Shown here: piece by piece, positions 20,129 through 36,494 of the stretch
Position numbering within the stretch: the first letter of the stretch is position 1
Layout of the letters: each line of letters starts with the position of its first letter
Assembly (NCBI GenBank): GCA_965219335.1
Contig: CBDCNG010000005.1
Coordinates: forward strand, 121,992 to 185,991
Length of the DNA: 64,000 bases
Source of the DNA: Leeuwenhoekiella sp.
GTDB taxonomy: Bacteria; Bacteroidota; Bacteroidia; Flavobacteriales; Flavobacteriaceae
Direction of reading: 5' to 3'
Notes under the pieces: generated by a model
Database searches by the model: none
Told to the model about the DNA's origin: nothing
What the model saw: only the letters and a program-made list of their open reading frames with translations
Translations under genes and position numbers: made by a program

Positions 20129-20584
20129 ATGAAAGATCTTACGATAGATTATGCCTTAAGGGCGACCTGGCAGGCCGTAACCAAAATGTATAACGAGCAG
20201 GCCTCTCAATTTGATAGTTCGATGGCTGTGGGCTTTGCGCTTTTAAGTATTGATGTTGAAGGCGGGACGCCATCCACCGCATTGGGGCCTAAAATGGGTA
20301 TGGAAGCCACAAGCCTTTCGCGTACCCTAAAATCCATGGAAGCACGCGGTCTGATAGAACGTCGTCCCAATCCTGAAGATGGTCGTGGTGTATTAATCTA
20401 TTTAACTGATTTTGGCCGGGAAAAACGTGCGTATAGCAAAGACAGAGTCCTCCGCTTTAATGAGGCGGTCAGGACATCGGTCACCGAAGAGCAAATGAAG
20501 CATTTTTTTGAAGTCATGCACAGTATTAATGACCTTATTCAGAACAAAAAGATTTATCCACAAGAAACGAAAATAAAACAATGA
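20129..20584 (+). CDS. MarR family transcriptional regulator of the beta-oxidation operon
   Basis: Winged HTH: ATSLSRTLKSMEARGLIERRPNPEDGRGVLIYLT; ATGA overlap with the next gene. Confidence 0.93.
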   Translation: MKDLTIDYALRATWQAVTKMYNEQASQFDSSMAVGFALLSIDVEGGTPSTALGPKMGMEATSLSRTLKSMEARGLIERRPNPEDGRGVLIYLTDFGREKRAYSKDRVLRFNEAVRTSVTEEQMKHFFEVMHSINDLIQNKKIYPQETKIKQ

Positions 20585-22989
20585 GCAAGAGAAGAATCAA
20601 TAAAGTAGCGGTTATCGGCTCTGGGATCATGGGGAGTGGCATTGCCTGTCATTTCGCTAATATTGGTGTTGAAGTCCTACTTTTGGATATTTTACCCAAT
20701 GAACTTACCGATAAGGAAAAGGCTGAAAATCTTACTTTAAAAAATAAAAGCGTTCGCGATCGCATTGCAAACGAGCACCTGCAGAGCGCTATTAATTCAA
20801 AGCCTGCCCCACTCTACCATAAAAATTTCGGTTCCCGGATAAAAACCGGCAATATTGAAGACGATATTGCTAAAGTAAGCGAAGTGGATTGGATTATCGA
20901 AGTCGTCGTGGAAAGGCTCGATATCAAAAAACAGGTTTTCGAAAATCTGGACAATCATAGAAAAGAGGGAACACTAATCACCTCAAACACTTCCGGAATC
21001 CCCATTCACTTGATGAATGAAGGCCGTAGCGAGGATTTTCAAAAACATTTTTGTGGAACACATTTCTTTAATCCTGCCCGTTATCTGGAGCTTTTTGAGA
21101 TTATTCCCGGACCCCAAACATCGCAGGATGTGCTGGATTTCTTAAACGATTATGGAGCTCGTTTTTTGGGTAAAACCCCGGTTATTGCCAAAGATACCCC
21201 GGCTTTTATAGGAAACCGCATAGGTATTTTCAGTATTATGAGCCTTTTTCATACCGTCAAAGAAATGGACATGACCGTGGAGGAGGTCGATAAACTGACC
21301 GGACCTGTTATCGGTAGGCCAAAGTCAGCCACTTTCCGTACCGTTGATGTCGTGGGGCTGGATACTTTGGTACACGTTGCCAATGGCCTTTACGAAAACT
21401 GCCCCGATGACGAGCGCCACGAGCTTTTCAAACTCCCGGATTTCATCGATACCATGATGGAAAAAAAATGGTTAGGCAGCAAGACCGGACAGGGATTTTA
21501 TAAAAAGGTCAAAAAAGAGAATGGCGATAGCGAGATTTTAACGCTCGACCTCGATAAAATGGACTACCGCGACGGAAAAAAAGCCTCTTTTTCCACGTTG
21601 GAAAAAACCAAAAGCATAGACCGTGTTGAAGAGCGATTTACCGTTCTCGTAGAAGGTGATGATAAGGCAGGTAAATTCTACCGAAAGAACTTCGGAGACC
21701 TTTTTGCCTACATACAAAACCGGATCCCCGAAATCACCGATGAACTGTACAAAATAGATGATGCAATGCGGGCCGGTTTTGGCTGGGGCGATGGGCCGTT
21801 CCAGATCTGGGATGCGCTTGGCGTAAAAAAGGGTATCGAACTCATAAAAGAACAAGGTTATGAAGTGGCCGATTGGGTCAACGAACTTGCAAAGAGTGGA
21901 AAGGATTCCTTCTACGAAATTAAGGATGGCAATACCTATTATTACGACATTCCCAAAAAGGAATATGTCAAAAAACCAGGTCAAGATGGCTTCATCATCC
22001 TCGATAATATTCGAAAATCCGCTGAGGTTTTCAAAAACAGCGGCGTGGTCATCGAAGATTTGGGCGACGGCATCCTAAATGTGGATTTCCAGTCCAAAAT
22101 GAATTCCGTAGGCGGGGATGTTCTCGCGGGGATCAATAAAGTGATTGAGCTGGCCGAAAAAAATCACGCCGGCGTGGTGATCGGCAACACGGGCAAGAAC
22201 TTTTCGGTAGGCGCCAATGTGGGGATGATCTTTATGATGGCCGTAGAGCAGGAATATGACGAGCTCAATCAAGCGGTCAAGTATTTTCAGGACACCTGTA
22301 TGCGCATCCGGTATTCTTCGATTCCCGTGATCGTTGCGCCACACGATATGACCTTGGGTGGTGGCTGTGAGATGACACTACACGCCGATCGCGTTGTCGC
22401 TGCCGCGGAAAGTTATATCGGTCTCGTGGAATTTGGCGTAGGCCTCATTCCCGGCGGTGGCGGTTCTAAAGAAATGACCGTTCGCGCCAGCGATACTTAC
22501 CATAAAGATGACGTGGAACTCAACCGGCTGCGCGAATATTTTCTCGCAATCGGGATGGCCAAGGTATCCACTTCGGCCTATGAAGCCTACGATACCGGCA
22601 TCCTCAAAAAAGGAAAGGATATCGTGGTTGTTAATAAGGCCCGCCAGATCGCTGCTGCGAAAGAAGTTGCAAAATTCATGGCCGAACAGGGCTACACCAA
22701 ACCCATTGAGCGCACCGATGTCAAAGTCCTCGGCAAGCAAGCATTAGGTCCTTTTTATGTGGGCACAGACCAGATGAACGCCGGAAACTACATCAGCGAG
22801 CACGACAAAAAAATCGCCAATAAACTCGCCTACGTCATGGCCGGCGGCGATCTTTCAGAGGCGTCTTATGTGAGTGAGCAGTATTTATTAGATCTAGAAC
22901 GTGAGGCATTCCTGAGCCTTTGTGGGGAACGGAAAACCCTGGAGCGACTTGAGCATATGATTAAGAAGAATAAGCCACTTCGTAATTAG
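20581..22989 (+). CDS. 3-hydroxyacyl-CoA dehydrogenase / enoyl-CoA hydratase (FadN-like)
   Basis: GSGIMGSG Rossmann motif, TSNTSG, HFFNPARY, C-terminal crotonase domain (LGGGCE, GLVEFGVGLIPGGGG). Confidence 0.95.
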   Translation: MSKRRINKVAVIGSGIMGSGIACHFANIGVEVLLLDILPNELTDKEKAENLTLKNKSVRDRIANEHLQSAINSKPAPLYHKNFGSRIKTGNIEDDIAKVSEVDWIIEVVVERLDIKKQVFENLDNHRKEGTLITSNTSGIPIHLMNEGRSEDFQKHFCGTHFFNPARYLELFEIIPGPQTSQDVLDFLNDYGARFLGKTPVIAKDTPAFIGNRIGIFSIMSLFHTVKEMDMTVEEVDKLTGPVIGRPKSATFRTVDVVGLDTLVHVANGLYENCPDDERHELFKLPDFIDTMMEKKWLGSKTGQGFYKKVKKENGDSEILTLDLDKMDYRDGKKASFSTLEKTKSIDRVEERFTVLVEGDDKAGKFYRKNFGDLFAYIQNRIPEITDELYKIDDAMRAGFGWGDGPFQIWDALGVKKGIELIKEQGYEVADWVNELAKSGKDSFYEIKDGNTYYYDIPKKEYVKKPGQDGFIILDNIRKSAEVFKNSGVVIEDLGDGILNVDFQSKMNSVGGDVLAGINKVIELAEKNHAGVVIGNTGKNFSVGANVGMIFMMAVEQEYDELNQAVKYFQDTCMRIRYSSIPVIVAPHDMTLGGGCEMTLHADRVVAAAESYIGLVEFGVGLIPGGGGSKEMTVRASDTYHKDDVELNRLREYFLAIGMAKVSTSAYEAYDTGILKKGKDIVVVNKARQIAAAKEVAKFMAEQGYTKPIERTDVKVLGKQALGPFYVGTDQMNAGNYISEHDKKIANKLAYVMAGGDLSEASYVSEQYLLDLEREAFLSLCGERKTLERLEHMIKKNKPLRN

Positions 22990-23001
22990 ATTTCTAATTA
23001 T

Positions 23002-23025
23002 AGAAAAAAGATAATAGAGAAAAGA
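23002..23025 (+). repeat. Left arm of 24-bp inverted repeat, 7-nt-periodic purine-rich array
   Basis: AGAAAAAAGATAATAGAGAAAAGA; AGA at 23002, 23009, 23016, 23023, 23030; 23/24 complementary to 23424-23447. Confidence 0.9.
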
Positions 23026-23057
23026 AAATAGAATAGAAATCGATTAATATCAATCAT

Positions 23058-23459
23058 ATGGAAAAGCGCAAGAGACACAACTACAAAAACTTGAAAATTT
23101 GGCAATTGGGTCTTGAAATCGCAAATGATTGTTCAGATATTTTACTTGATTTTCCAAAACATGAACGTTACGATTTAAGTTCTCAGATTAGCCGATGTTC
23201 CGTTTCTATAGCTAGTAATATAGCAGAAGGTTCTTCAAGAACCAATAAATCTTTTCACCATTATATTGATATTTCTTTGGGCTCTTCTTTTGAGCTCGGA
23301 ACACAACTTTTAATTGCTCGGCATAGAAAACACATTGATACTAAAACATTAAATCTATTGGAAAAGAAGATCGAAGAATGGCAGAGAATGACAATGAGTT
23401 TCCAAAATAAACTCGGCGGTACATCTTTTCTCTCTTATCTTTTTTCTTTTTTCCTTTAA
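23058..23459 (+). CDS. Four-helix-bundle protein (23S rRNA IVP / TIGR02436-like)
   Basis: HNYKNLKIWQ, FPKHERYDLSSQISRCSVSIASNIAEG, ISLGSSFELGTQL; the C-terminal tail is translated through the right repeat arm. Confidence 0.92.
   Translation: MEKRKRHNYKNLKIWQLGLEIANDCSDILLDFPKHERYDLSSQISRCSVSIASNIAEGSSRTNKSFHHYIDISLGSSFELGTQLLIARHRKHIDTKTLNLLEKKIEEWQRMTMSFQNKLGGTSFLSYLFSFFL
23424..23447 (+). repeat. Right arm of 24-bp inverted repeat, 7-nt-periodic pyrimidine-rich array
   Basis: TCTTTTCTCTCTTATCTTTTTTCT; TCT at 23424, 23431, 23438, 23445. Confidence 0.9.
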
Positions 23460-23469
23460 AAAATAAACC

Positions 23470-24662
23470 ATGCAAAAAACCGCATATATCGTTCAAGCTT
23501 ACCGCACCGCAGTAGGAAAGGCTCCCCGGGGAACTTTTCGCTTTAAGCGGCCTGATGAACTCGCTTCGGAAACCATTCAATATCTATTGGATAAAGTGCC
23601 GCAACTTGACAAAAAACGCATCGATGACGTGATCGTCGGCAATGCCATGCCCGAGGCGGAACAAGGGCTCAATATGGGAAGACTGATCTCCCTGATGGGA
23701 CTTCAAATAGAGGATATCCCTGGGGTAACCGTAAACCGCTATTGCGCGTCTGGTATTGAGACCATTGCGATGGCTTCTGCCAAAATACAGGCGGGTATGG
23801 CCGACTGTATTCTTGCCGGCGGGGCCGAAAGTATGAGTTATATCCCCATGGGCGGCTACAAACCCGTACCTGATTATAAATTGGCCGTTGAAGGTCACGA
23901 AGATTACTACTGGAATATGGGCCTTACAGCGGAAGCGGTAGCAAAACAGTTTAAGGTTTCTCGTGAAGAACAGGACGAATTTGCCTACAATTCGCATCAA
24001 AAAGCGATTAAAGCGCAGGCGGAAAACCGCTTTCAGGATCAGATCGTGCCCATTGATGTACATGAGACTTTTGTTAACGACTCCGGTAAAAAAGAGACGA
24101 GAACCTACACAGTCAATAAAGACGAAGGGCCGCGTAAAGATACCAGCCTGGAGGTTTTGGCCAAACTGCGCCCTGTTTTCGCCGAGGGCGGAAGTGTTAC
24201 CGCCGGAAATTCGTCACAAATGAGTGACGGCGCAGCTTTCACATTGATCATGAGCGAGGAAATGGTCAAAGAACTCCATATAGAACCCATAGCCCGTTTG
24301 GTCAATTATGCACCCGTGGGGGTTGAACCGCGAATAATGGGCATAGGGCCCATAAAAGCGGTTCCCAAAGCCCTAAAACAGCCGGAAAGGAGCTGAAAGA
24401 TATGGAACTCATAGAACTGAACGAAGCATTCGCCTCTCAGTCGGTTGCCGTGATTCGCGAACTCGGTCTGAACAAAGACATCGTAAACGTTAACGGCGGA
24501 GCGATTGCTTTAGGGCATCCGCTGGGTTGTACCGGCAGCAAACTATCGGTCCAGCTTTTTGATGAAATGCGCAAGCGCAACCTGCAAGGAAAATATGGTA
24601 TGGTCACCATGTGCGTGGGTACAGGTCAGGGAGCTGCGGGGGTTTATGAGTTTCTACAGTAA
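23470..24662 (+). pseudogene. Acetyl-CoA C-acyltransferase (thiolase) split by a 1-nt deletion near 24380 (true lesion or sequencing error)
   Basis: ORF 23470-24396 has VNRYCASG; ORF 24402-24662 has ELNEAFA, GHPLG and CVGTGQG. Adding one G (CAG GCC GGA AAG) restores [19 protein letters not shown], a 397-aa thiolase. Confidence 0.85.
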
Positions 24663-24665
24663 AAA

Positions 24666-24777
24666 GACATAGGACTTGAGGACGTAGGACTTAAGACTAA
24701 AAAAGCAGACTTTAACACAATAATCATAAAGGATAAAACACATGGGTCCTACGTCTTATGTCCTACCGTCCAAAGTC
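24666..24777 (+). repeat. ORF-less inverted pair of 7-nt-periodic arrays (GAC / GTC units)
   Basis: GAC at 24666, 24673, 24681, 24688, 24695; GTC at 24746, 24753, 24760, 24768, 24775 in mirror register; 23/32 Watson-Crick plus 2 G-U pairs; 48-nt loop. Confidence 0.85.
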
Positions 24778-24790
24778 AATTAAAGAAAAG

Positions 24791-26602
24791 ATGAGCACAC
24801 AAACACTAGAAAAAAAAGACCTGCTTCGCGGGGGCCAGTTTTTGGTCAAGGAAACCAAATGCGAGGATATATTTACCCCAGAAGATTTCTCTGAGGAACA
24901 GCAGATGATGCGGGATTCGGTAAAAGAATTTGTAGACCGCGAGATCATACCGTACAAAGAGCGATTTGAAAAGAAGGATTATGCCTTTACCGAAGAAGTT
25001 ATGCGCAAGGCCGGCGAACTTGGTTTTCTGGGCGTAGCAGTTCCCGAGGAATATGACGGCCTTGGGATGGGTTTCGTCTCCACCATGCTGGTCTGTGACT
25101 ACATTTCGGGTGCTACGGGATCAGTCGCGACCGCCTTTGGTGCACATACCGGCATCGGTACCATGCCCATCACCCTTTATGGAACCGAGGCCCAAAAGAA
25201 AAAATATGTACCTAAATTGGCCACGGGCGAATGGTTTGGCTCCTATGCGCTGACCGAACCCGGCGCCGGGAGCGATGCAAACAGCGGGAAAACAAAAGCC
25301 GTCCTCTCTGAAGACGGAACTTATTATTCCATTTCCGGGCAGAAAATGTGGATTTCCAATGCTGGTTTTTGCAACCTTTTCATCGTTTTTGCCCGGATTG
25401 GGGATGATAAAAATATCACGGGTTTTATTGTAGAAAACGACCCTGAAAATGGGATTTCGCTGGGTGAAGAAGAGAAAAAATTAGGTATTCACTCCTCTTC
25501 TACCCGACAGGTCTTTTTCAATGAAACCAAAGTTCCGGTAGAAAATATATTATCTGAGCGCGGGAATGGTTTTAAGATTGCGATGAACGCGCTCAACATA
25601 GGCCGGATCAAGCTCGCCGCTGCCAGTCTGGATGCACAGCGCCGCGTGATCGGTAATGCGGTCAAATATGCCAATGAGCGGATTCAGTTTAAAACGCCAA
25701 TCTCAAAATTTGGCGCCATCAGGCAGAAATTAGCCGAAATGGCAACGTCCGCTTGGGTAGGCGAAAGCGCCAGTTACCGTGCCGGTCATGATATTGAGCA
25801 GCGCATCAGTATCCGTCAGGAAAAGGGCGCTTCTCATCAAGAGGCAGAACTTAAGGGTGTAGAAGAATATGCCATTGAGTGTTCTTTATTAAAAGTAGCC
25901 GTTTCCGAAGATATCCAGAACTGTGCAGATGAGGGCATCCAGATTTTTGGCGGAATGGGCTTTAGTGCTGATACGCCCATGGAAGCGGCGTGGCGCGATG
26001 CACGAATCGCACGGATTTATGAAGGCACCAACGAGATCAACCGGATGCTCGCCGTAGGCATGCTCGTTAAGAAAGCGATGAAAGGTCATGTAGACCTATT
26101 GAACCCGGCACAGGCCGTGGCCGACGAACTGACAGGCATCCCCTCTTTTGAAATACCCGATTTCAGCGAAGTTCTTTCCGAAGAAAAAGCAATGATTTCC
26201 AAACTTAAAAAAGTATTCCTAATGGTAGCCGGCAGCGCGGTCCAGAAATTTGGCACGGAACTCGAAGAGCACCAACAAATTCTCTTAGCCGCAGCAGATA
26301 TTCTTATCGAGATCTATATGGCAGAAAGTGGAGTGCTCAGGGCAGAAAAGGCAGCTAAACGTACTGGTAAAGAATTAGTTGAAAAACAGATCGCTATGGC
26401 ACAGCTTTATCTTTATCATGCGGTTGACACCATTAACCAAAATGGGAAAGAGGCCATTGTTTCTTTTGCCGAGGGTGACGAGCAGCGTATGATGCTTATG
26501 GGTCTGAAACGGTTTACAAAATATCAAAATCAGCCTAATGTGGTCGCCTTGCGCAATGTGATAGCCGATAAAGTTATAAACGCCAATACCTATCCATTTT
26601 AA
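24791..26602 (+). CDS. Acyl-CoA dehydrogenase
   Basis: YALTEPGAGSDA, GQKMWISN, QIFGGMGF, RIYEGTNEI; ATG at 24791 preferred over 24758, which lies inside the repeat arm. Confidence 0.95.
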   Translation: MSTQTLEKKDLLRGGQFLVKETKCEDIFTPEDFSEEQQMMRDSVKEFVDREIIPYKERFEKKDYAFTEEVMRKAGELGFLGVAVPEEYDGLGMGFVSTMLVCDYISGATGSVATAFGAHTGIGTMPITLYGTEAQKKKYVPKLATGEWFGSYALTEPGAGSDANSGKTKAVLSEDGTYYSISGQKMWISNAGFCNLFIVFARIGDDKNITGFIVENDPENGISLGEEEKKLGIHSSSTRQVFFNETKVPVENILSERGNGFKIAMNALNIGRIKLAAASLDAQRRVIGNAVKYANERIQFKTPISKFGAIRQKLAEMATSAWVGESASYRAGHDIEQRISIRQEKGASHQEAELKGVEEYAIECSLLKVAVSEDIQNCADEGIQIFGGMGFSADTPMEAAWRDARIARIYEGTNEINRMLAVGMLVKKAMKGHVDLLNPAQAVADELTGIPSFEIPDFSEVLSEEKAMISKLKKVFLMVAGSAVQKFGTELEEHQQILLAAADILIEIYMAESGVLRAEKAAKRTGKELVEKQIAMAQLYLYHAVDTINQNGKEAIVSFAEGDEQRMMLMGLKRFTKYQNQPNVVALRNVIADKVINANTYPF

Positions 26603-27875: not shown

Positions 27876-28982
27876 ATGATGTTACTGATCACGTCTGAAC
27901 TTTCCAAATTCTTAATCATCAGCATTATCGCTGCTGCGGCTATATTTTTTGCACTTTATATCGTGCTCAAAAAATTGGGTAAAAGTCCCAATAACATTCT
28001 GCCAATAAATATCGCAGAGCGCATTAAAATTCCCCTTGCGCTATTACTCATAAGCCTAGTTTTAAAGCTTGGTAAGATACAGAAGTTACTTTCAGATTTT
28101 ATATCAGACGCAATACCAGAACAGATCGCAACTATCTTGCTGATCATCGCGCTGGTTTGGCTTGCCATCGTTACGGTTAAAATCTTCAAGCACCGTATCC
28201 TTGAAAATTATGACATCAGTTCAACAAACAATATTGCTGCGCGCAGGATTTATACGCAGTTCAATATTCTGGAGCGCGTCATCATTTTTTTACTTATTCT
28301 TATAGGTATAGCCGTGATCCTTATGAGTTTTAAAAGCATCAGGGCCATGGGTGTGGCCATGCTATCCTCTGCTGGTATAGCGGGCATTATTATAGGTTTT
28401 GCGGCTCAAAAGGCGCTGGGAACACTCCTTGCGGGTATTCAGATTGCATTTACACAACCCATACGCATCGATGATGTGGTGATCGTAGAGGGCGAATGGG
28501 GCCGTATTGAAGAGATCACATTGACCTACGTGGTTGTCGCCATTTGGGACAAACGCCGCCTGGTACTCCCAACGACTTATTTTATAGAAAAACCTTTTCA
28601 AAACTGGACGCGCAATTCCGCAGACTTGCTGGGTACCGTATTCATTTATACCGATTATAGTGTGCCATTTGATGAACTACGTGCTGAACTGACGCGCTTG
28701 CTAGATCATAATCCGCTGTGGGACCGTAAGGTAAATGTACTGCAGGTAACGGATTCCAATTCAAATTACGTAGAAGTTCGTGCCCTAATGAGCGCCAAGG
28801 ATTCGGGCACTGCCTTTGACCTTCGCGTTTATGTGCGGGAGCATTTAATCACTTTCATACAGAAAAAATATCCGGACAGCTTTGCCCGTACTCGCGTGCA
28901 AATGTTGGGAGAGCAGAAAAAAACGGCGCCAAAGGGTACTAAAAACACAAGTGAAGATAACAATCAGCAAAAAATGTTCTGA
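27876..28982 (+). CDS. Mechanosensitive ion channel, MscS family
   Basis: N-terminal TM helices; GIQIAFTQPIRIDDVV, GRIEEITLTY, PFQNW. Confidence 0.93.
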   Translation: MMLLITSELSKFLIISIIAAAAIFFALYIVLKKLGKSPNNILPINIAERIKIPLALLLISLVLKLGKIQKLLSDFISDAIPEQIATILLIIALVWLAIVTVKIFKHRILENYDISSTNNIAARRIYTQFNILERVIIFLLILIGIAVILMSFKSIRAMGVAMLSSAGIAGIIIGFAAQKALGTLLAGIQIAFTQPIRIDDVVIVEGEWGRIEEITLTYVVVAIWDKRRLVLPTTYFIEKPFQNWTRNSADLLGTVFIYTDYSVPFDELRAELTRLLDHNPLWDRKVNVLQVTDSNSNYVEVRALMSAKDSGTAFDLRVYVREHLITFIQKKYPDSFARTRVQMLGEQKKTAPKGTKNTSEDNNQQKMF

Positions 28983-29205
28983 GCAGGACGATTGCTCGTA
29001 CACTTTCGCGGCAGCGCAAAAAAACATAAATCATTTAGAAATATACCTTTGTAGAATTTACCTGAGTTTATCAGTGTCGCATGCTGGCGAAAAATTTAAT
29101 GCCAGGTAAATTCTATTAAAGTTCATTAAAATAGGCAGTTAAAACCTTATAATTTCCGAAATTTAAGAAAAATCACCATAAGCAATCCAATTAGCCAACC
29201 CATTT

Positions 29206-31419
29206 ATGAGTAAGACGATTATTATTTCAAACCGACTGCCCCTGCAGTTAAAGATAGAAAATGAGGCCATTGAAGCAACCCCTAGTGTGGGAGGCCTTGC
29301 AACCGGGATGAAATCGGTACATAAAGAATCTAATGGCGTATGGATAGGGTGGACCGGACTTACCGAAGAAGAGTTGCCAGAACATCTGGAAAAAGATGTG
29401 GCCGATGCCTGTAAAAAGGAACAATGCGTGCCGGTAAGCTTAAATGAGGAAGATCTCAACGGTTTTTATTATGGCTTTAGTAACCGCACAATCTGGCCCC
29501 TGTTCCATTATTTTATGGAATACACCGAATTTGAAAGGGAAAACTGGAATATCTATAAAAAAGTAAATCAAAAATTTGCCAAGGTCGTCCTTGAAAATAT
29601 TGAAGAAGGGGATACCGTTTGGATACATGACTATCAGCTGATGCTGCTGCCCCAGCTCATCAAAGAAGAGCGGCCGGATGTGCGCATTGGTTTTTTTCTT
29701 CATATCCCCTTTCCGTCTTACGAGGTTTTCCGCACACTGCCCTGGCGCGAATCTATCTTAAAAGGGCTTCTGGGAGCTGATCTTATAGGCTTTCACACCT
29801 ACGATTATGAGCGGCATTTTTTAAGCTCTGTAACCAGGATTTTACGGCACGATGTCGACTTTAATGAGATCATGCTCAAAGACCGTATCGTTACCGTAAA
29901 CTCCTACCCTATGGGTATTCATTACAATAAATTTGAGCAGGCCGCGCTCAAAAATCAGGAGCAGAAAAAAAAGGAGCGGTCTGAGCTACAGCGAAGGCTT
30001 GATCTGCACCTTGATGCTACTCCCGATGCAAAAATGATCCTTTCAATAGACCGGCTGGATTATACCAAAGGGATTGCCAACCGCATTCGGGCGTATGAAT
30101 ATTTTCTTGAGAAATATCCTAATTATAAAGAGAAAGTAAGGCTGGTGATGCTTGCGGTTCCCTCCCGATCTAATGTGCCCCAATACCAACTCCTCAAAAA
30201 AGAGGTGGATGAACTCGTAGGACGAATCAATGGAAAGTTTGCCACTGTAAGCTGGACGCCCATATGGTATTTTTACCGCTCCATGCCGTTTGAAAACCTG
30301 ATCGACCTGTATACCAGTTGTGATATTGCCCTGCTTACCCCGATACGGGACGGGATGAATCTTGTGGCCAAAGAGTATATTGCCACACGCACAGATAAAA
30401 AAGGTGTGCTGATACTCAGTGAAATGACAGGGGCCGCCCATGAAATGTATGAGTCCCTTTTAATAAACCCCAATAATTTTGAAGAAATCGCCGATGTGAT
30501 AAAACGGGCTATCGAGATGCCAGAAGAAGAACAGATCAAGCGGAATACCATACTTCAAAAACGGCTGAAACGCTACAATGTAGAAAAATGGGCATCTGAT
30601 TTTATGCAAAACCTCGAGAAGACTAATGAGAAGAGGCATATCTTTAATGCCGTGAAAATAGGTGATTCACAGCTTAAAGATATGATGACAGCCTATAAAG
30701 AGGCCAAAAAACGCATACTTTTTCTCGATTATGATGGTACTTTAAGAGGTTTCGTAAATAATCCTGCAGATGCAGAACCAGATCAGGCTTTACTTGATCT
30801 GATCTCACAGATTCAAAAACAGGAAAACACAGAGGTGATCCTGATAAGTGGCCGTGACCGGAATACCCTGGGCACATGGTGGCTGGATGTGCCGGTAACG
30901 CTCATAGCCGAGCACGGCGTATGGAAAAGGGATATAGGTATGGAATGGGAAATCAACGACAATGTAAAAAAAGACTGGATGCCGCAGATAAGACCCATTT
31001 TAGAGACTTTTGTAGATAGAACGCCAGGAACTTTTATTGAAGAAAAAAATTACTCCCTGGCCTGGCATTACCGCAATGCAGATCCTGCACTTGGCGAGAT
31101 GAGGGCTAATGAACTATCAACTGTGATTAAAGAATTGACCAGTAATAACGATCTGGGCGTACTGGATGGAAACAAAGTGCTGGAGATTAAAAATTCTTCG
31201 GTAAATAAGGGAAAGGCCGTATCAAAGGAAGTATTTAAAAAGGATTACGATTTTATTTTTTCAATAGGTGATGACTGGACTGACGAGTACATGTTTCAGG
31301 ATCTACCGGATTCTGCATACACCGTTAAAGTTGGATTTCATAAAACCGCTGCCCGTTTTTATGTTGATGACACGCAGCGCGTAAGAGAACTTCTAAATGA
31401 ATTTGTTTCAGCAGGTTAA
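29206..31419 (+). CDS. Bifunctional trehalose-6-phosphate synthase / phosphatase (OtsA-OtsB fusion)
   Basis: GT20 motifs WIHDYQL, HIPFP, DRLDYTKG, DGMNLVAKEY; HAD domain FLDYDGTL and IGDDWTDE. Confidence 0.96.
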   Translation: MSKTIIISNRLPLQLKIENEAIEATPSVGGLATGMKSVHKESNGVWIGWTGLTEEELPEHLEKDVADACKKEQCVPVSLNEEDLNGFYYGFSNRTIWPLFHYFMEYTEFERENWNIYKKVNQKFAKVVLENIEEGDTVWIHDYQLMLLPQLIKEERPDVRIGFFLHIPFPSYEVFRTLPWRESILKGLLGADLIGFHTYDYERHFLSSVTRILRHDVDFNEIMLKDRIVTVNSYPMGIHYNKFEQAALKNQEQKKKERSELQRRLDLHLDATPDAKMILSIDRLDYTKGIANRIRAYEYFLEKYPNYKEKVRLVMLAVPSRSNVPQYQLLKKEVDELVGRINGKFATVSWTPIWYFYRSMPFENLIDLYTSCDIALLTPIRDGMNLVAKEYIATRTDKKGVLILSEMTGAAHEMYESLLINPNNFEEIADVIKRAIEMPEEEQIKRNTILQKRLKRYNVEKWASDFMQNLEKTNEKRHIFNAVKIGDSQLKDMMTAYKEAKKRILFLDYDGTLRGFVNNPADAEPDQALLDLISQIQKQENTEVILISGRDRNTLGTWWLDVPVTLIAEHGVWKRDIGMEWEINDNVKKDWMPQIRPILETFVDRTPGTFIEEKNYSLAWHYRNADPALGEMRANELSTVIKELTSNNDLGVLDGNKVLEIKNSSVNKGKAVSKEVFKKDYDFIFSIGDDWTDEYMFQDLPDSAYTVKVGFHKTAARFYVDDTQRVRELLNEFVSAG

Positions 31420-35699: not shown

Positions 35700-35808
35700 A
35701 TATAAGCTTTAAAATTTATAAATATAGATTATAAGTTAATAAGCTTATAAAATTAATTTATAAGTTTTTGAACTTATAACAATATATCATAAGCTAATAT
35801 GCTTATAT
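35700..35808. promoter_or_regulatory. Array of four 22-bp palindromic operators, 29-bp period
   Basis: Consensus TTATAAGYT-N4-ARYTTATAA at 35700, 35729, 35758, 35787 with 7-bp linkers; the fourth overlaps the -7 element TATATTTG (35804-35811). Confidence 0.8.
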
Positions 35809-35816
35809 TTGTTCTC

Positions 35817-36494
35817 ATGAAAAAATTTGCGGTCATATCAGGCGACATTATAGCCTTTACAAGTCTTTCCGATGCATCAAAAAATAATCTGGAGACTGGT
35901 CTTGACGTGTTGTTTAAAGAGTTAAATTCTAGGTTCGATGCTCATTCCAGACTAATAAAAGGAGATTATCTGGAATGTGCGGTACCCAAGCCGCAAGACG
36001 GCTTGCGCATTGCACTAATCATAAAAACGTTTATTAAGACCCTAGACTTGGATGCCAAAAATGAACGCCATCGATTTTTTGAAGAATACGGCATACGTCT
36101 AGCCCTAGGATATGGCACACTCTCCCGGTATGAGCCCCAGAAAGGGATTATTGATGGGGAGGCCATCTACTTAAGTGGGAGAAAAGTAAATGAAGAAAGC
36201 ACCCATAACAAAACGCGCGTAACCATTAAAAATACATTACAATTTGTTTCTAACGATAATGCGCTCAATCAGCCCATGGAAGCCATTTTTGCTCTTTTGG
36301 ATTTTATGCTCATCCGCGCAACTCGAAAACAAAGCGAAGTAGCCCATCATAAACTTTTAGGCCGCAGTGAGGAAGAGATTGCCTCCCTATTGGGCACAAG
36401 CCAGCCTGCCGTAAACCAACATTCTACAAGCATAGGGTGGAATGCCATTGACAAGGCCGTAACCTATTATGAAAAAAAAATAACCCAACTCTAG
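35817..36494 (+). CDS. SatD family protein (nucleotidyl-cyclase-like N-domain + C-terminal HTH)
   Basis: AVISGDII...IKGDYLE, RLALGYG, GEAIYLSG, and HTH SEEEIASLLGTSQPAVNQH; ATG at 35817. Confidence 0.75.
   Translation: MKKFAVISGDIIAFTSLSDASKNNLETGLDVLFKELNSRFDAHSRLIKGDYLECAVPKPQDGLRIALIIKTFIKTLDLDAKNERHRFFEEYGIRLALGYGTLSRYEPQKGIIDGEAIYLSGRKVNEESTHNKTRVTIKNTLQFVSNDNALNQPMEAIFALLDFMLIRATRKQSEVAHHKLLGRSEEEIASLLGTSQPAVNQHSTSIGWNAIDKAVTYYEKKITQL

Follow-up and report, generated by a model that had tools for sequence, protein, structure and literature searches.

I describe here a hairpin of 112 nt (positions 24666-24777) in a 64,000-nt stretch of contig CBDCNG010000005.1 from Leeuwenhoekiella sp. 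(hereafter the window), where it occupies the spacer between a thiolase gene and an acyl-CoA dehydrogenase (ACAD) gene. Judging by its relatives in other sequences, it is very probably a member, without an open reading frame (ORF), of a family of elements of the IVP or intervening sequence (IVS) type. A full element of this family consists of a promoter-less small gene for a four-helix-bundle protein (IVP/S23p, PF05635), co-oriented with the host genes and set in the loop of a long interrupted stem, whose arms are complementary arrays of about five heptamer units. The whole explanation that I favour, with a probability of roughly 0.6, is that the window hairpin is an ORF-less IVS-type stem-loop in operon mRNA, derived from a gene-filled element, that acts as an RNase III-type processing or stability site.

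The left (5') arm (24666..24697, + strand) is built of five GAC units that start at 24666, 24673, 24681, 24688 and 24695, at spacings of 7, 8, 7 and 7 (GACATAG GACTTGAG GACGTAG GACTTAA GAC). The right (3') arm (24746..24777, + strand) has five GTC units starting at 24746, 24753, 24760, 24768 and 24775, at spacings of 7, 7, 8 and 7 (GTCCTAC GTCTTAT GTCCTACC GTCCAAA GTC). When position i is paired with 49443-i, the 32 mirrored positions give 23 Watson-Crick pairs, 2 G-U pairs and 7 mismatches, and these 32-nt arms bracket the element as terminal inverted repeats. The loop (24698..24745, + strand) measures 48 nt, is 54% A and holds no ORF; in related elements it is the slot of the IVP gene. The left arm begins 3 nt past the thiolase stop codon (TAA, 24660-24662) and the right arm ends 13 nt before the ACAD ATG at 24791, so the hairpin fills the spacer; the A-rich ACAD leader AATTAAAGAAAAG between right arm and start codon stays unpaired. 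Everything that the original prediction gave on this point (coordinates, spacings, pair counts, the ORF-less loop, placement between thiolase and ACAD) was reproduced, and the mirrored GAC/GTC hairpin is a confirmed observation. Its structure is also beyond chance: the RNA fold of 24660-24795 has a free energy of -33.6 kcal/mol, compared with -17.8 +/- 3.2 kcal/mol in 200 dinucleotide shuffles (z = -4.9). Tandem Repeats Finder reports only three arrays of period 7 or 14 in the 64 kb (23000-23033, 23424-23457 and 24666-24698), and the window contains no second copy of the hairpin. Rfam 15, searched at permissive E-values over 22900-24900, returned no rRNA or other relevant family, only two chance-level matches (E 5-7) that both lie outside the hairpin.

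A sister element of the hairpin lies in the same operon, in the spacer between the fadB-like gene and the thiolase gene. This sister element carries a cargo gene (23058..23459, + strand) for a 133-aa four-helix-bundle protein, which matches PF05635 23S_rRNA_IVP (E 1e-28) and TIGR02436, between 30-nt complementary arms made of AGA-type heptamers on the left (23003..23032, + strand) and TCT-type heptamers on the right (23424..23453, + strand). The hairpin had been placed in the same class as this element at 23.0-23.4 kb, as a cargo-less member, and the assignment stands: its neighbour is a PF05635 gene between heptamer arms, both states occur at the corresponding loci of relatives, and an intermediate between them exists.

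An ACAD-protein scan of species-representative genomes yielded 80 syntenic Flavobacteriaceae loci (79-85% identity, about 13.8 kb each), the closest ACAD loci being those of Aureitalea, Christiangramia, Mesonia and Aequorivita. The thiolase-ACAD spacer holds an IVP gene between heptamer arms in 28-30 loci of 78 (410-575 nt), an ORF-less hairpin with heptamer arms in about 15 (70-150 nt) and unrelated palindromic repeats in about 10, and it is minimal (5-59 nt) in 16. The fadB-thiolase spacer, compared at 73 loci, is minimal in 23, IVP-filled in 18 and ORF-less in about 20, some of which have two tandem hairpins. Among spacer arms of at least 16 nt, the best self-similarity lag is 7 in 66 spacers, and all IVP ORFs of the 80 loci (49/49) lie on the operon strand. 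Between the filled and the bare state stands the fadB-thiolase spacer of one locus (L013:4531-4692). There, an internal deletion has left an IVP element of 162 nt; its CTAGA-type arms are intact, and the IVP start codon and 8 further codons are fused to the last 15 or so codons of the gene. Compared with the full element of locus L033, this one differs by a single internal deletion of about 293 nt; therefore, loss of cargo with retention of the arms does occur.

Some of these spacers hold other material. In nine Flavobacterium loci (L019, L024, L027, L036, L047 and L038, L049, L068, L074) the fad spacers contain two unrelated palindromic families (GTCATTTCGACGAAGGAGAAATC... and GCCCCCTAACCCCCAAAGGGGGAA...); the spacers therefore accept several kinds of hairpin insert. 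In four loci (L014, L060, L065 and L076) the IVP of the thiolase-ACAD spacer belongs to a more distant subfamily (MKENVIAIKTFDFAL...) and is flanked by AT-only heptamer arms (ATTTTAA/ATTTTGA), and elements with AT-only arms but no ORF sit in the fadB-thiolase spacer of L060, L065 and L076. Finally, the thiolase-ACAD spacer of an Aureitalea sp. (L001:5857-6000) consists of a pair of long heptamer arrays, (GTTAGAT)n followed by (ACTGAAC/ACTGAAT)n, which are only weakly complementary and resemble the long arrays of MacGregor (2015).

The particular arms of the window recur far beyond its own locus. A metagenome scan with the right-arm pattern GTCCTANGTCTTANGTCN{4,5}GTC gave at least 120 matches, and those listed are tandem GTCYTAN arrays rather than chance occurrences, 91 of the 121 lying in chains of at least five units. 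A mirrored GAC chain is present within 700 nt in 48 of these 121, and solo arrays with no mirrored partner are common. The exact five-unit architecture (7,8,7,7 on the left and 7,7,8,7 on the right) was found in at least nine independent metagenome contigs. Of the copies with this architecture, seven are ORF-less (L155, L181, L103, which is the same element as L117, L162, L173, L140 and L086), with loops of 21-84 nt. The other two hold an IVP gene: L141, to which L161 and L178 are identical, with a loop of 394 nt, and L092, with one of 391 nt, both situated between fadB and thiolase. The arms of L141 are identical to those of the window at 32/38 and 26/34 positions, the irregular ..TACCGTC.. 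unit included, and the IVPs of L141 and L092 fall in the same cluster (at least 55% identity) as the window IVP. The expectation that relatives with GAC/GTC arms might carry a four-helix ORF in the loop was thus borne out by these two elements. The irregular 8-nt right-arm unit is common to the window and to L141, L139, L148, L108, L195 and L091, and the left-arm unit architecture of the window is the same in L141, L155, L181, L103 and L162. Further filled GAC-type elements lie between the genes for an E2 acyltransferase and lipoamide dehydrogenase (L105) and between those for ACAD and etfB (L127), with the IVP gene co-oriented with its neighbours. One metagenome contig has four GAC/GTC five-unit hairpins in tandem (L181:3038-3430).

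In two filled elements (L127:1998-2455 and L193:6773-7218) the topology is reversed: the GTC array precedes the IVP gene and the GAC array follows it, so that the family has no fixed arm order. This bears on one part of the original prediction, that a purine-rich 5' arm and a pyrimidine-rich 3' arm belong to the shared architecture. A purine-rich arm facing a pyrimidine-rich one is intrinsic to any inverted repeat, which reads the same on either strand, and does not reveal orientation relative to transcription; moreover, the left arm of the window is only 64% purine and GTC-first hairpins exist. I therefore dropped the purine-rich arm as an orientation signal.

The recurrence of the architecture disposes of one alternative, that the inverted repeat arose by chance when a simple repeat slipped locally. 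Arrays of short heptamers can lengthen by slippage, and their copy number differs among strains of Coxiella, but slippage is refuted as an origin because the same arrangement of five units, down to the position of the 8-nt unit, is found again and again in independent contigs; the z-score of the fold also speaks against it, and I regard its probability as negligible.

An ordinary operon-internal terminator, attenuator or stabiliser of the REP (repetitive extragenic palindromic) kind, of local origin and unrelated to IVP elements, is very unlikely. It would account for a stable hairpin placed right after a stop codon, and unrelated palindromic repeats do occupy the same spacers in some Flavobacterium species. 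However, no T-run follows the stem (the tail is the A-rich leader given above, and the loop is 48 nt long), and a terminator scan of 24660-24790 found no site. In addition, the spacers of relatives can be as short as 5-30 nt, so that the genes are normally contiguous cistrons, and the arm architecture is shared with IVP-filled elements. The original prediction turned on whether filled alleles and other mirrored period-7 arrays exist, and both exist in number. Nor does the spacer look like a place where transcription starts: a scan of it for sigma-70 promoters found no site, and no Bacteroidetes-type -7 motif (TAnnTTTG) was seen by eye in 24600-24800.

These results leave the favoured explanation with two parts that go beyond class membership, namely the origin of the window copy and its role in RNA. 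As to origin, the window copy would be what remained of a filled element after an internal deletion had removed the cargo. By analogy, this is the most likely course, because intermediates are found at other loci and because the ORF of the Coxiella IVS is itself known to suffer deletion. As to role, the arms would pair in the operon mRNA as a duplex of about 32 bp with a mismatch roughly every seven positions, and this duplex may be an RNase III-type substrate as in the Coxiella IVS. The hairpin would then be a site of processing or stabilisation between the cistrons, keeping the thiolase and ACAD messages apart or protecting them, rather than a terminator. Such an RNA-level or RNase III role between the two cistrons is suggested by the analogy with Coxiella together with co-transcription in relatives, and I put it forward tentatively, at slightly less than even odds. 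Transcriptomic contigs of two relatives (X10 from one, X11 and X12 from the other), 6.1-6.4 kb in length, run unbroken over L035:3600-6400 and contain, in order, fadB, an ORF-less hairpin, thiolase, an IVP element and ACAD. They support co-transcription of such elements with the operon in relatives. It may well be that the hairpin is selectively near-neutral for its host.

Several observations weigh against this explanation and have to be set beside it. The transcriptomic contigs are assembled and may hold carried-over DNA, and they are blind to processing. In a covariation alignment limited to the arms of six GAC-type elements (A1), 21 of the 32 pairs are the same in all of the unrelated contigs and a double change is seen in just one pair, so compensatory covariation in the GAC subfamily was not found; the score lies below that of 498 of 500 shuffles. 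Variable positions in fact pair in 79.7% of cases, compared with 82.5 +/- 1.4% in shuffles (a value at least as high as that observed arises in 494 of 500 shuffles), and in the six elements the first N position is always unpaired. Mismatches of the G-U and A-C kinds, an asymmetry of which could betray selection acting on the sense-strand RNA, number 39 to 29 over 66 elements (23 to 18 when de-duplicated), a count that speaks neither for RNA nor for one strand. Uninterrupted helices are at most 5-6 bp long and may suit RNase III poorly. On the side of origin, a gapped alignment of the 48-nt loop to L141 and L092 gave only short insignificant fragments and no IVP remnant, though the arms align well. 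I infer the direction of change, deletion as against a hairpin that never had cargo, from the intermediates at other loci.

What, then, is recognised in the arms? Two further comparisons agree with the covariation result: an arm of the GAC subfamily matches its own partner at 23.8 of 32 positions and the arms of different elements at 25.5 of 32, and in the wider GAC family the N position is paired in 24 of 66 cases, which is the chance level (32% expected). On these alignments, the complementarity of the GAC subfamily comes from conserved motif positions (GAC and TA) and not from compensatory evolution. The conserved motif positions pair, whereas the variable ones do not, and the duplex would therefore be periodic, with blocks of 2-6 pairs between mismatches.

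This pattern is what one would expect if the arms were protein-binding arrays, in which each heptamer is a putative RNA or DNA site for one subunit of an oligomer, possibly a pentameric IVP, and complementarity is a by-product. The GAC and TA positions are invariant across unrelated contigs while the positions in between vary without covarying. There are five units per arm, a homologue structure (2GSC) has five chains and the S23p of Xanthomonas forms a homopentameric toroid (PMC4990558). Solo heptamer arrays with no mirrored partner are common, also in the literature (PMC4679880). However, within one clade of closely related IVPs (at least 55% identity) there are six unrelated arm unit types (AGA, CAAGA, AAGAAGC, ATAGATG, CTAGA and GAC), always of the same type in both arms, which is hard to square with sequence-specific recognition by the IVP. 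Variant units are also mirrored almost perfectly in several other subfamilies (27/28 in L015, 36/38 in L037). I thus consider the protein-array explanation quite unlikely, though it could hold alongside the favoured one.

The concordant change of unit type within one IVP clade would favour the idea, put forward in the original prediction, that architecture rather than sequence is recognised, but the invariance of 21 of 32 GAC arm positions in the absence of covariation could equally point to recognition of sequence. The facts of the stem fit selection for pairing, copying of one arm from the other, or recognition of each heptamer by a protein subunit.

The distribution of the elements raises the question of whether they are mobile DNA, which the word 'non-autonomous' in the original prediction presupposes. 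They could resemble miniature inverted-repeat transposable elements (MITEs), with the arms as terminal inverted repeats and the ORF-less hairpin as a miniature mobilised in trans, its RNA structure being incidental. The window element is small, has terminal inverted repeats and encodes no transposase. Its presence in close relatives is patchy: in a relative from a soil metagenome (run X2), whose flanking genes are about 94% identical, the spacer has 148 unalignable nucleotides where the window has 127 (24663-24791), a difference of 21 or 3 x 7, and other thiolase contigs of the same soil sample pass from the stop codon straight into different heptamer arms. Arms homologous to those of the window lie at a different spacer (fadB-thiolase) in L141 and L092, and the window IVP is 76-77% identical to IVPs located in the other fad spacer in Flavobacterium. 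The source organism is represented by contigs in runs X1 and X3. Three X1 contigs whose depth is similar match the window arms at 80% or more, which suggests further hairpin copies in the source genome, though X1 is a mixed sample; no IVP paralogue was found near GAC arms in X1 at 80% or more nucleotide identity when compared with the window IVP locus. A further contig of organism D has the same 25-nt arms as the hairpin of L035, and tandem copies of elements occur in L181, L030, L032 and L042. In short-read assemblies, contigs are seen to break at such hairpins.

On the other side, no transposase-encoding autonomous relative was found among the related full elements, which encode only the IVP, a protein with no known catalytic activity, and no recombinase is associated with them either. 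The flanks of 10 GAC-type elements show no repeated target-site duplication, only A-rich spacer. Furthermore, 64 mirrored heptamer spacers were detected in the 80 loci and 60 of them belong to the two fad spacers of a single operon, a distribution that vertical inheritance with decay fits equally well. MITE-like mobility is therefore, in my estimate, somewhat unlikely, perhaps one chance in a few, and it is compatible with the favoured explanation. MITEs and REP-type palindromes such as the Correia elements of Neisseria and the REP and BIME (bacterial interspersed mosaic element) sequences of E. coli are co-transcribed and are cut by RNase III or stabilise mRNA. They share with the window family that they are small, ORF-less, multi-copy inverted repeats in transcribed spacers, variable between strains and able to form a hairpin in mRNA. 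In contrast, the window family has periodic heptamer arms, a four-helix-bundle gene instead of a transposase or RAYT, and no target-site duplication.

The favoured explanation, that of an IVS-type stem-loop, draws instead on the intervening sequences of 23S rRNA. In Coxiella burnetii the IVS in helix 45 is 428 nt long, with an S23p ORF in its loop and a 28-bp stem of inverted repeats (Warrier et al., 2016; PMC4990558). Its 5' region has AGAAGA followed by two or three tandem GACAGAT heptamers, the number depending on the strain, and RNase III cuts the stem at the first heptamer both in vitro and according to RACE (rapid amplification of cDNA ends) (PMC4990558). In one strain, 176 bp of the ORF are deleted (PMC4990558). 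The elements of Flavobacteriaceae resemble the IVS of Coxiella, Leptospira and Brucella in having a PF05635/S23p four-helix bundle gene in the loop (in the related filled elements), an ORF that reads in the same sense as the host transcript, terminal inverted repeats that pair as a stem of about 28-32 bp, an arm of copy-variable tandem heptamers (GACAGAT in Coxiella, GACNTAR here) and an ORF prone to deletion. They differ in that the host is a protein-coding operon (thiolase/ACAD) and not helix 9, 25 or 45 of 23S rRNA. The window copy itself has no ORF and is thus filed as an ORF-less derivative rather than a full member; its stem is mismatched about every 7 nt, whereas that of Coxiella has one mismatch and one bulge, and cleavage by RNase III, demonstrated in Coxiella, is here only a matter of analogy. 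Because of the shared anatomy I take the window element to be a stem-loop of the IVS type, without cargo, in the mRNA of an operon, and it is best classed as an IVS-type element that lies outside rRNA and whose ORF has been lost.

Two other systems are related in part. MacGregor (2015) described intergenic direct heptamer repeats (TAACTGA and others) in Beggiatoaceae, Cyanobacteria and Bacteroidetes (PMC4679880). As here, they are tandem heptamers near start codons, including those of the Flavobacteriaceae Gramella forsetii and Aequorivita, and close relatives lack the arrays; in contrast, they are direct arrays with one inverted case only, have another unit sequence and were given no link to hairpins or to IVPs (PMC4679880). 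The cargo family is also homologous to Avd, the accessory protein of diversity-generating retroelements, which PF05635 is known to resemble (PMC10053308), and the cargo scores with bAvd at E 5e-4 and with DivGenRetAVD at E 7e-5, both below cutoffs. However, there is no reverse transcriptase, template repeat or variable repeat near the element, and the cargo matches TIGR02436/PF05635 far better. Finally, in two strains of Flavobacterium columnare a gene for a 'four helix bundle protein' lies between gmk and nadD with spacers of about 35 nt and has been filed under phage elements (PMC5524665); it is probably the same kind of intercistronic insert. Searches of the open-access literature on IVP, S23p, TIGR02436, heptamer repeats and Flavobacteria found no account of IVP elements in operon spacers or of ORF-less derivatives.

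There is also a wider conjecture, which I think unlikely: that IVS elements are general transcript-embedded cassettes, in which a pentameric Avd-like four-helix-bundle gene and arms of five heptamer units may settle in any tolerant transcribed spacer, be it in an operon or in 23S rRNA. Each subunit of the IVP pentamer would recognise one arm unit, in the service of mobility, copying or the handling of RNA, and the ORF-less hairpins would depend, as satellites, on IVPs that act in trans from a gene elsewhere, in this case 1.2 kb upstream.

The remaining features of the locus can be given briefly. The operon serves the beta-oxidation of fatty acids and begins with a gene for a MarR-family regulator (20129-20584, + strand), followed by that for the fadB-like 3-hydroxyacyl-CoA dehydrogenase/enoyl-CoA hydratase (20581-22989, + strand), by thiolase (23470..24662, + strand) upstream of the hairpin and by ACAD (24791..26602, + strand) downstream, the homologues of which align from residue 1. 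The thiolase gene of the window is split by a 1-nt frameshift near 24380 (24365-24400) into ORFs at 23470-24396 and 24402-24662. In a contig of X1 one more G follows position 24380, and with it the thiolase is intact at 397 aa; the frameshift probably reflects a polymorphism, or else a mistake in assembly or base calling, rather than a pseudogene. At the end of the window IVP ORF (23395-23459), the usual stop before the right arm is lost (relatives end in ...FQNGLK and a stop), and the reading frame continues through the TCT-rich right arm, gaining a hydrophobic tail, GGTSFLSYLFSFFL. Elsewhere in the window, an AT-rich array of TTATAAG/CTTATAA palindromes with a 29-nt period (35701-35807) lies directly upstream of an ORF at 35799-36494; this repeat is of another kind and may be a set of operator sites. 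A 25-nt inverted repeat that is 80% complementary, with a 38-nt loop, and is not built of heptamers (29040-29127) sits between a gene ending at 28982 and one starting at 29206.

The origin and function of the IVS and its S23p ORF, which 'remain unclear' according to Warrier et al. (2016; PMC4990558), have been an open question since about 1990. S23p/IVS elements, heptamer arms and bare hairpins are one widespread family of inserts in transcribed spacers, and all its stages (full elements, internally deleted ones and bare hairpins) are seen across Flavobacteriaceae and in many metagenomes. This suggests that IVS-type elements colonise transcribed spacers in general and not only rRNA, and the question becomes approachable by experiment in cultivable Flavobacterium. 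The family also offers a reason why thousands of 'four helix bundle protein' genes are wedged among unrelated cistrons, and a context for intergenic heptamer arrays that had earlier been described without one. For the bacteria themselves, such hairpins may determine how stable one cistron is relative to the next, in beta-oxidation operons and in others. The interest of this locus thus lies less in a single hairpin than in the family that it reveals.

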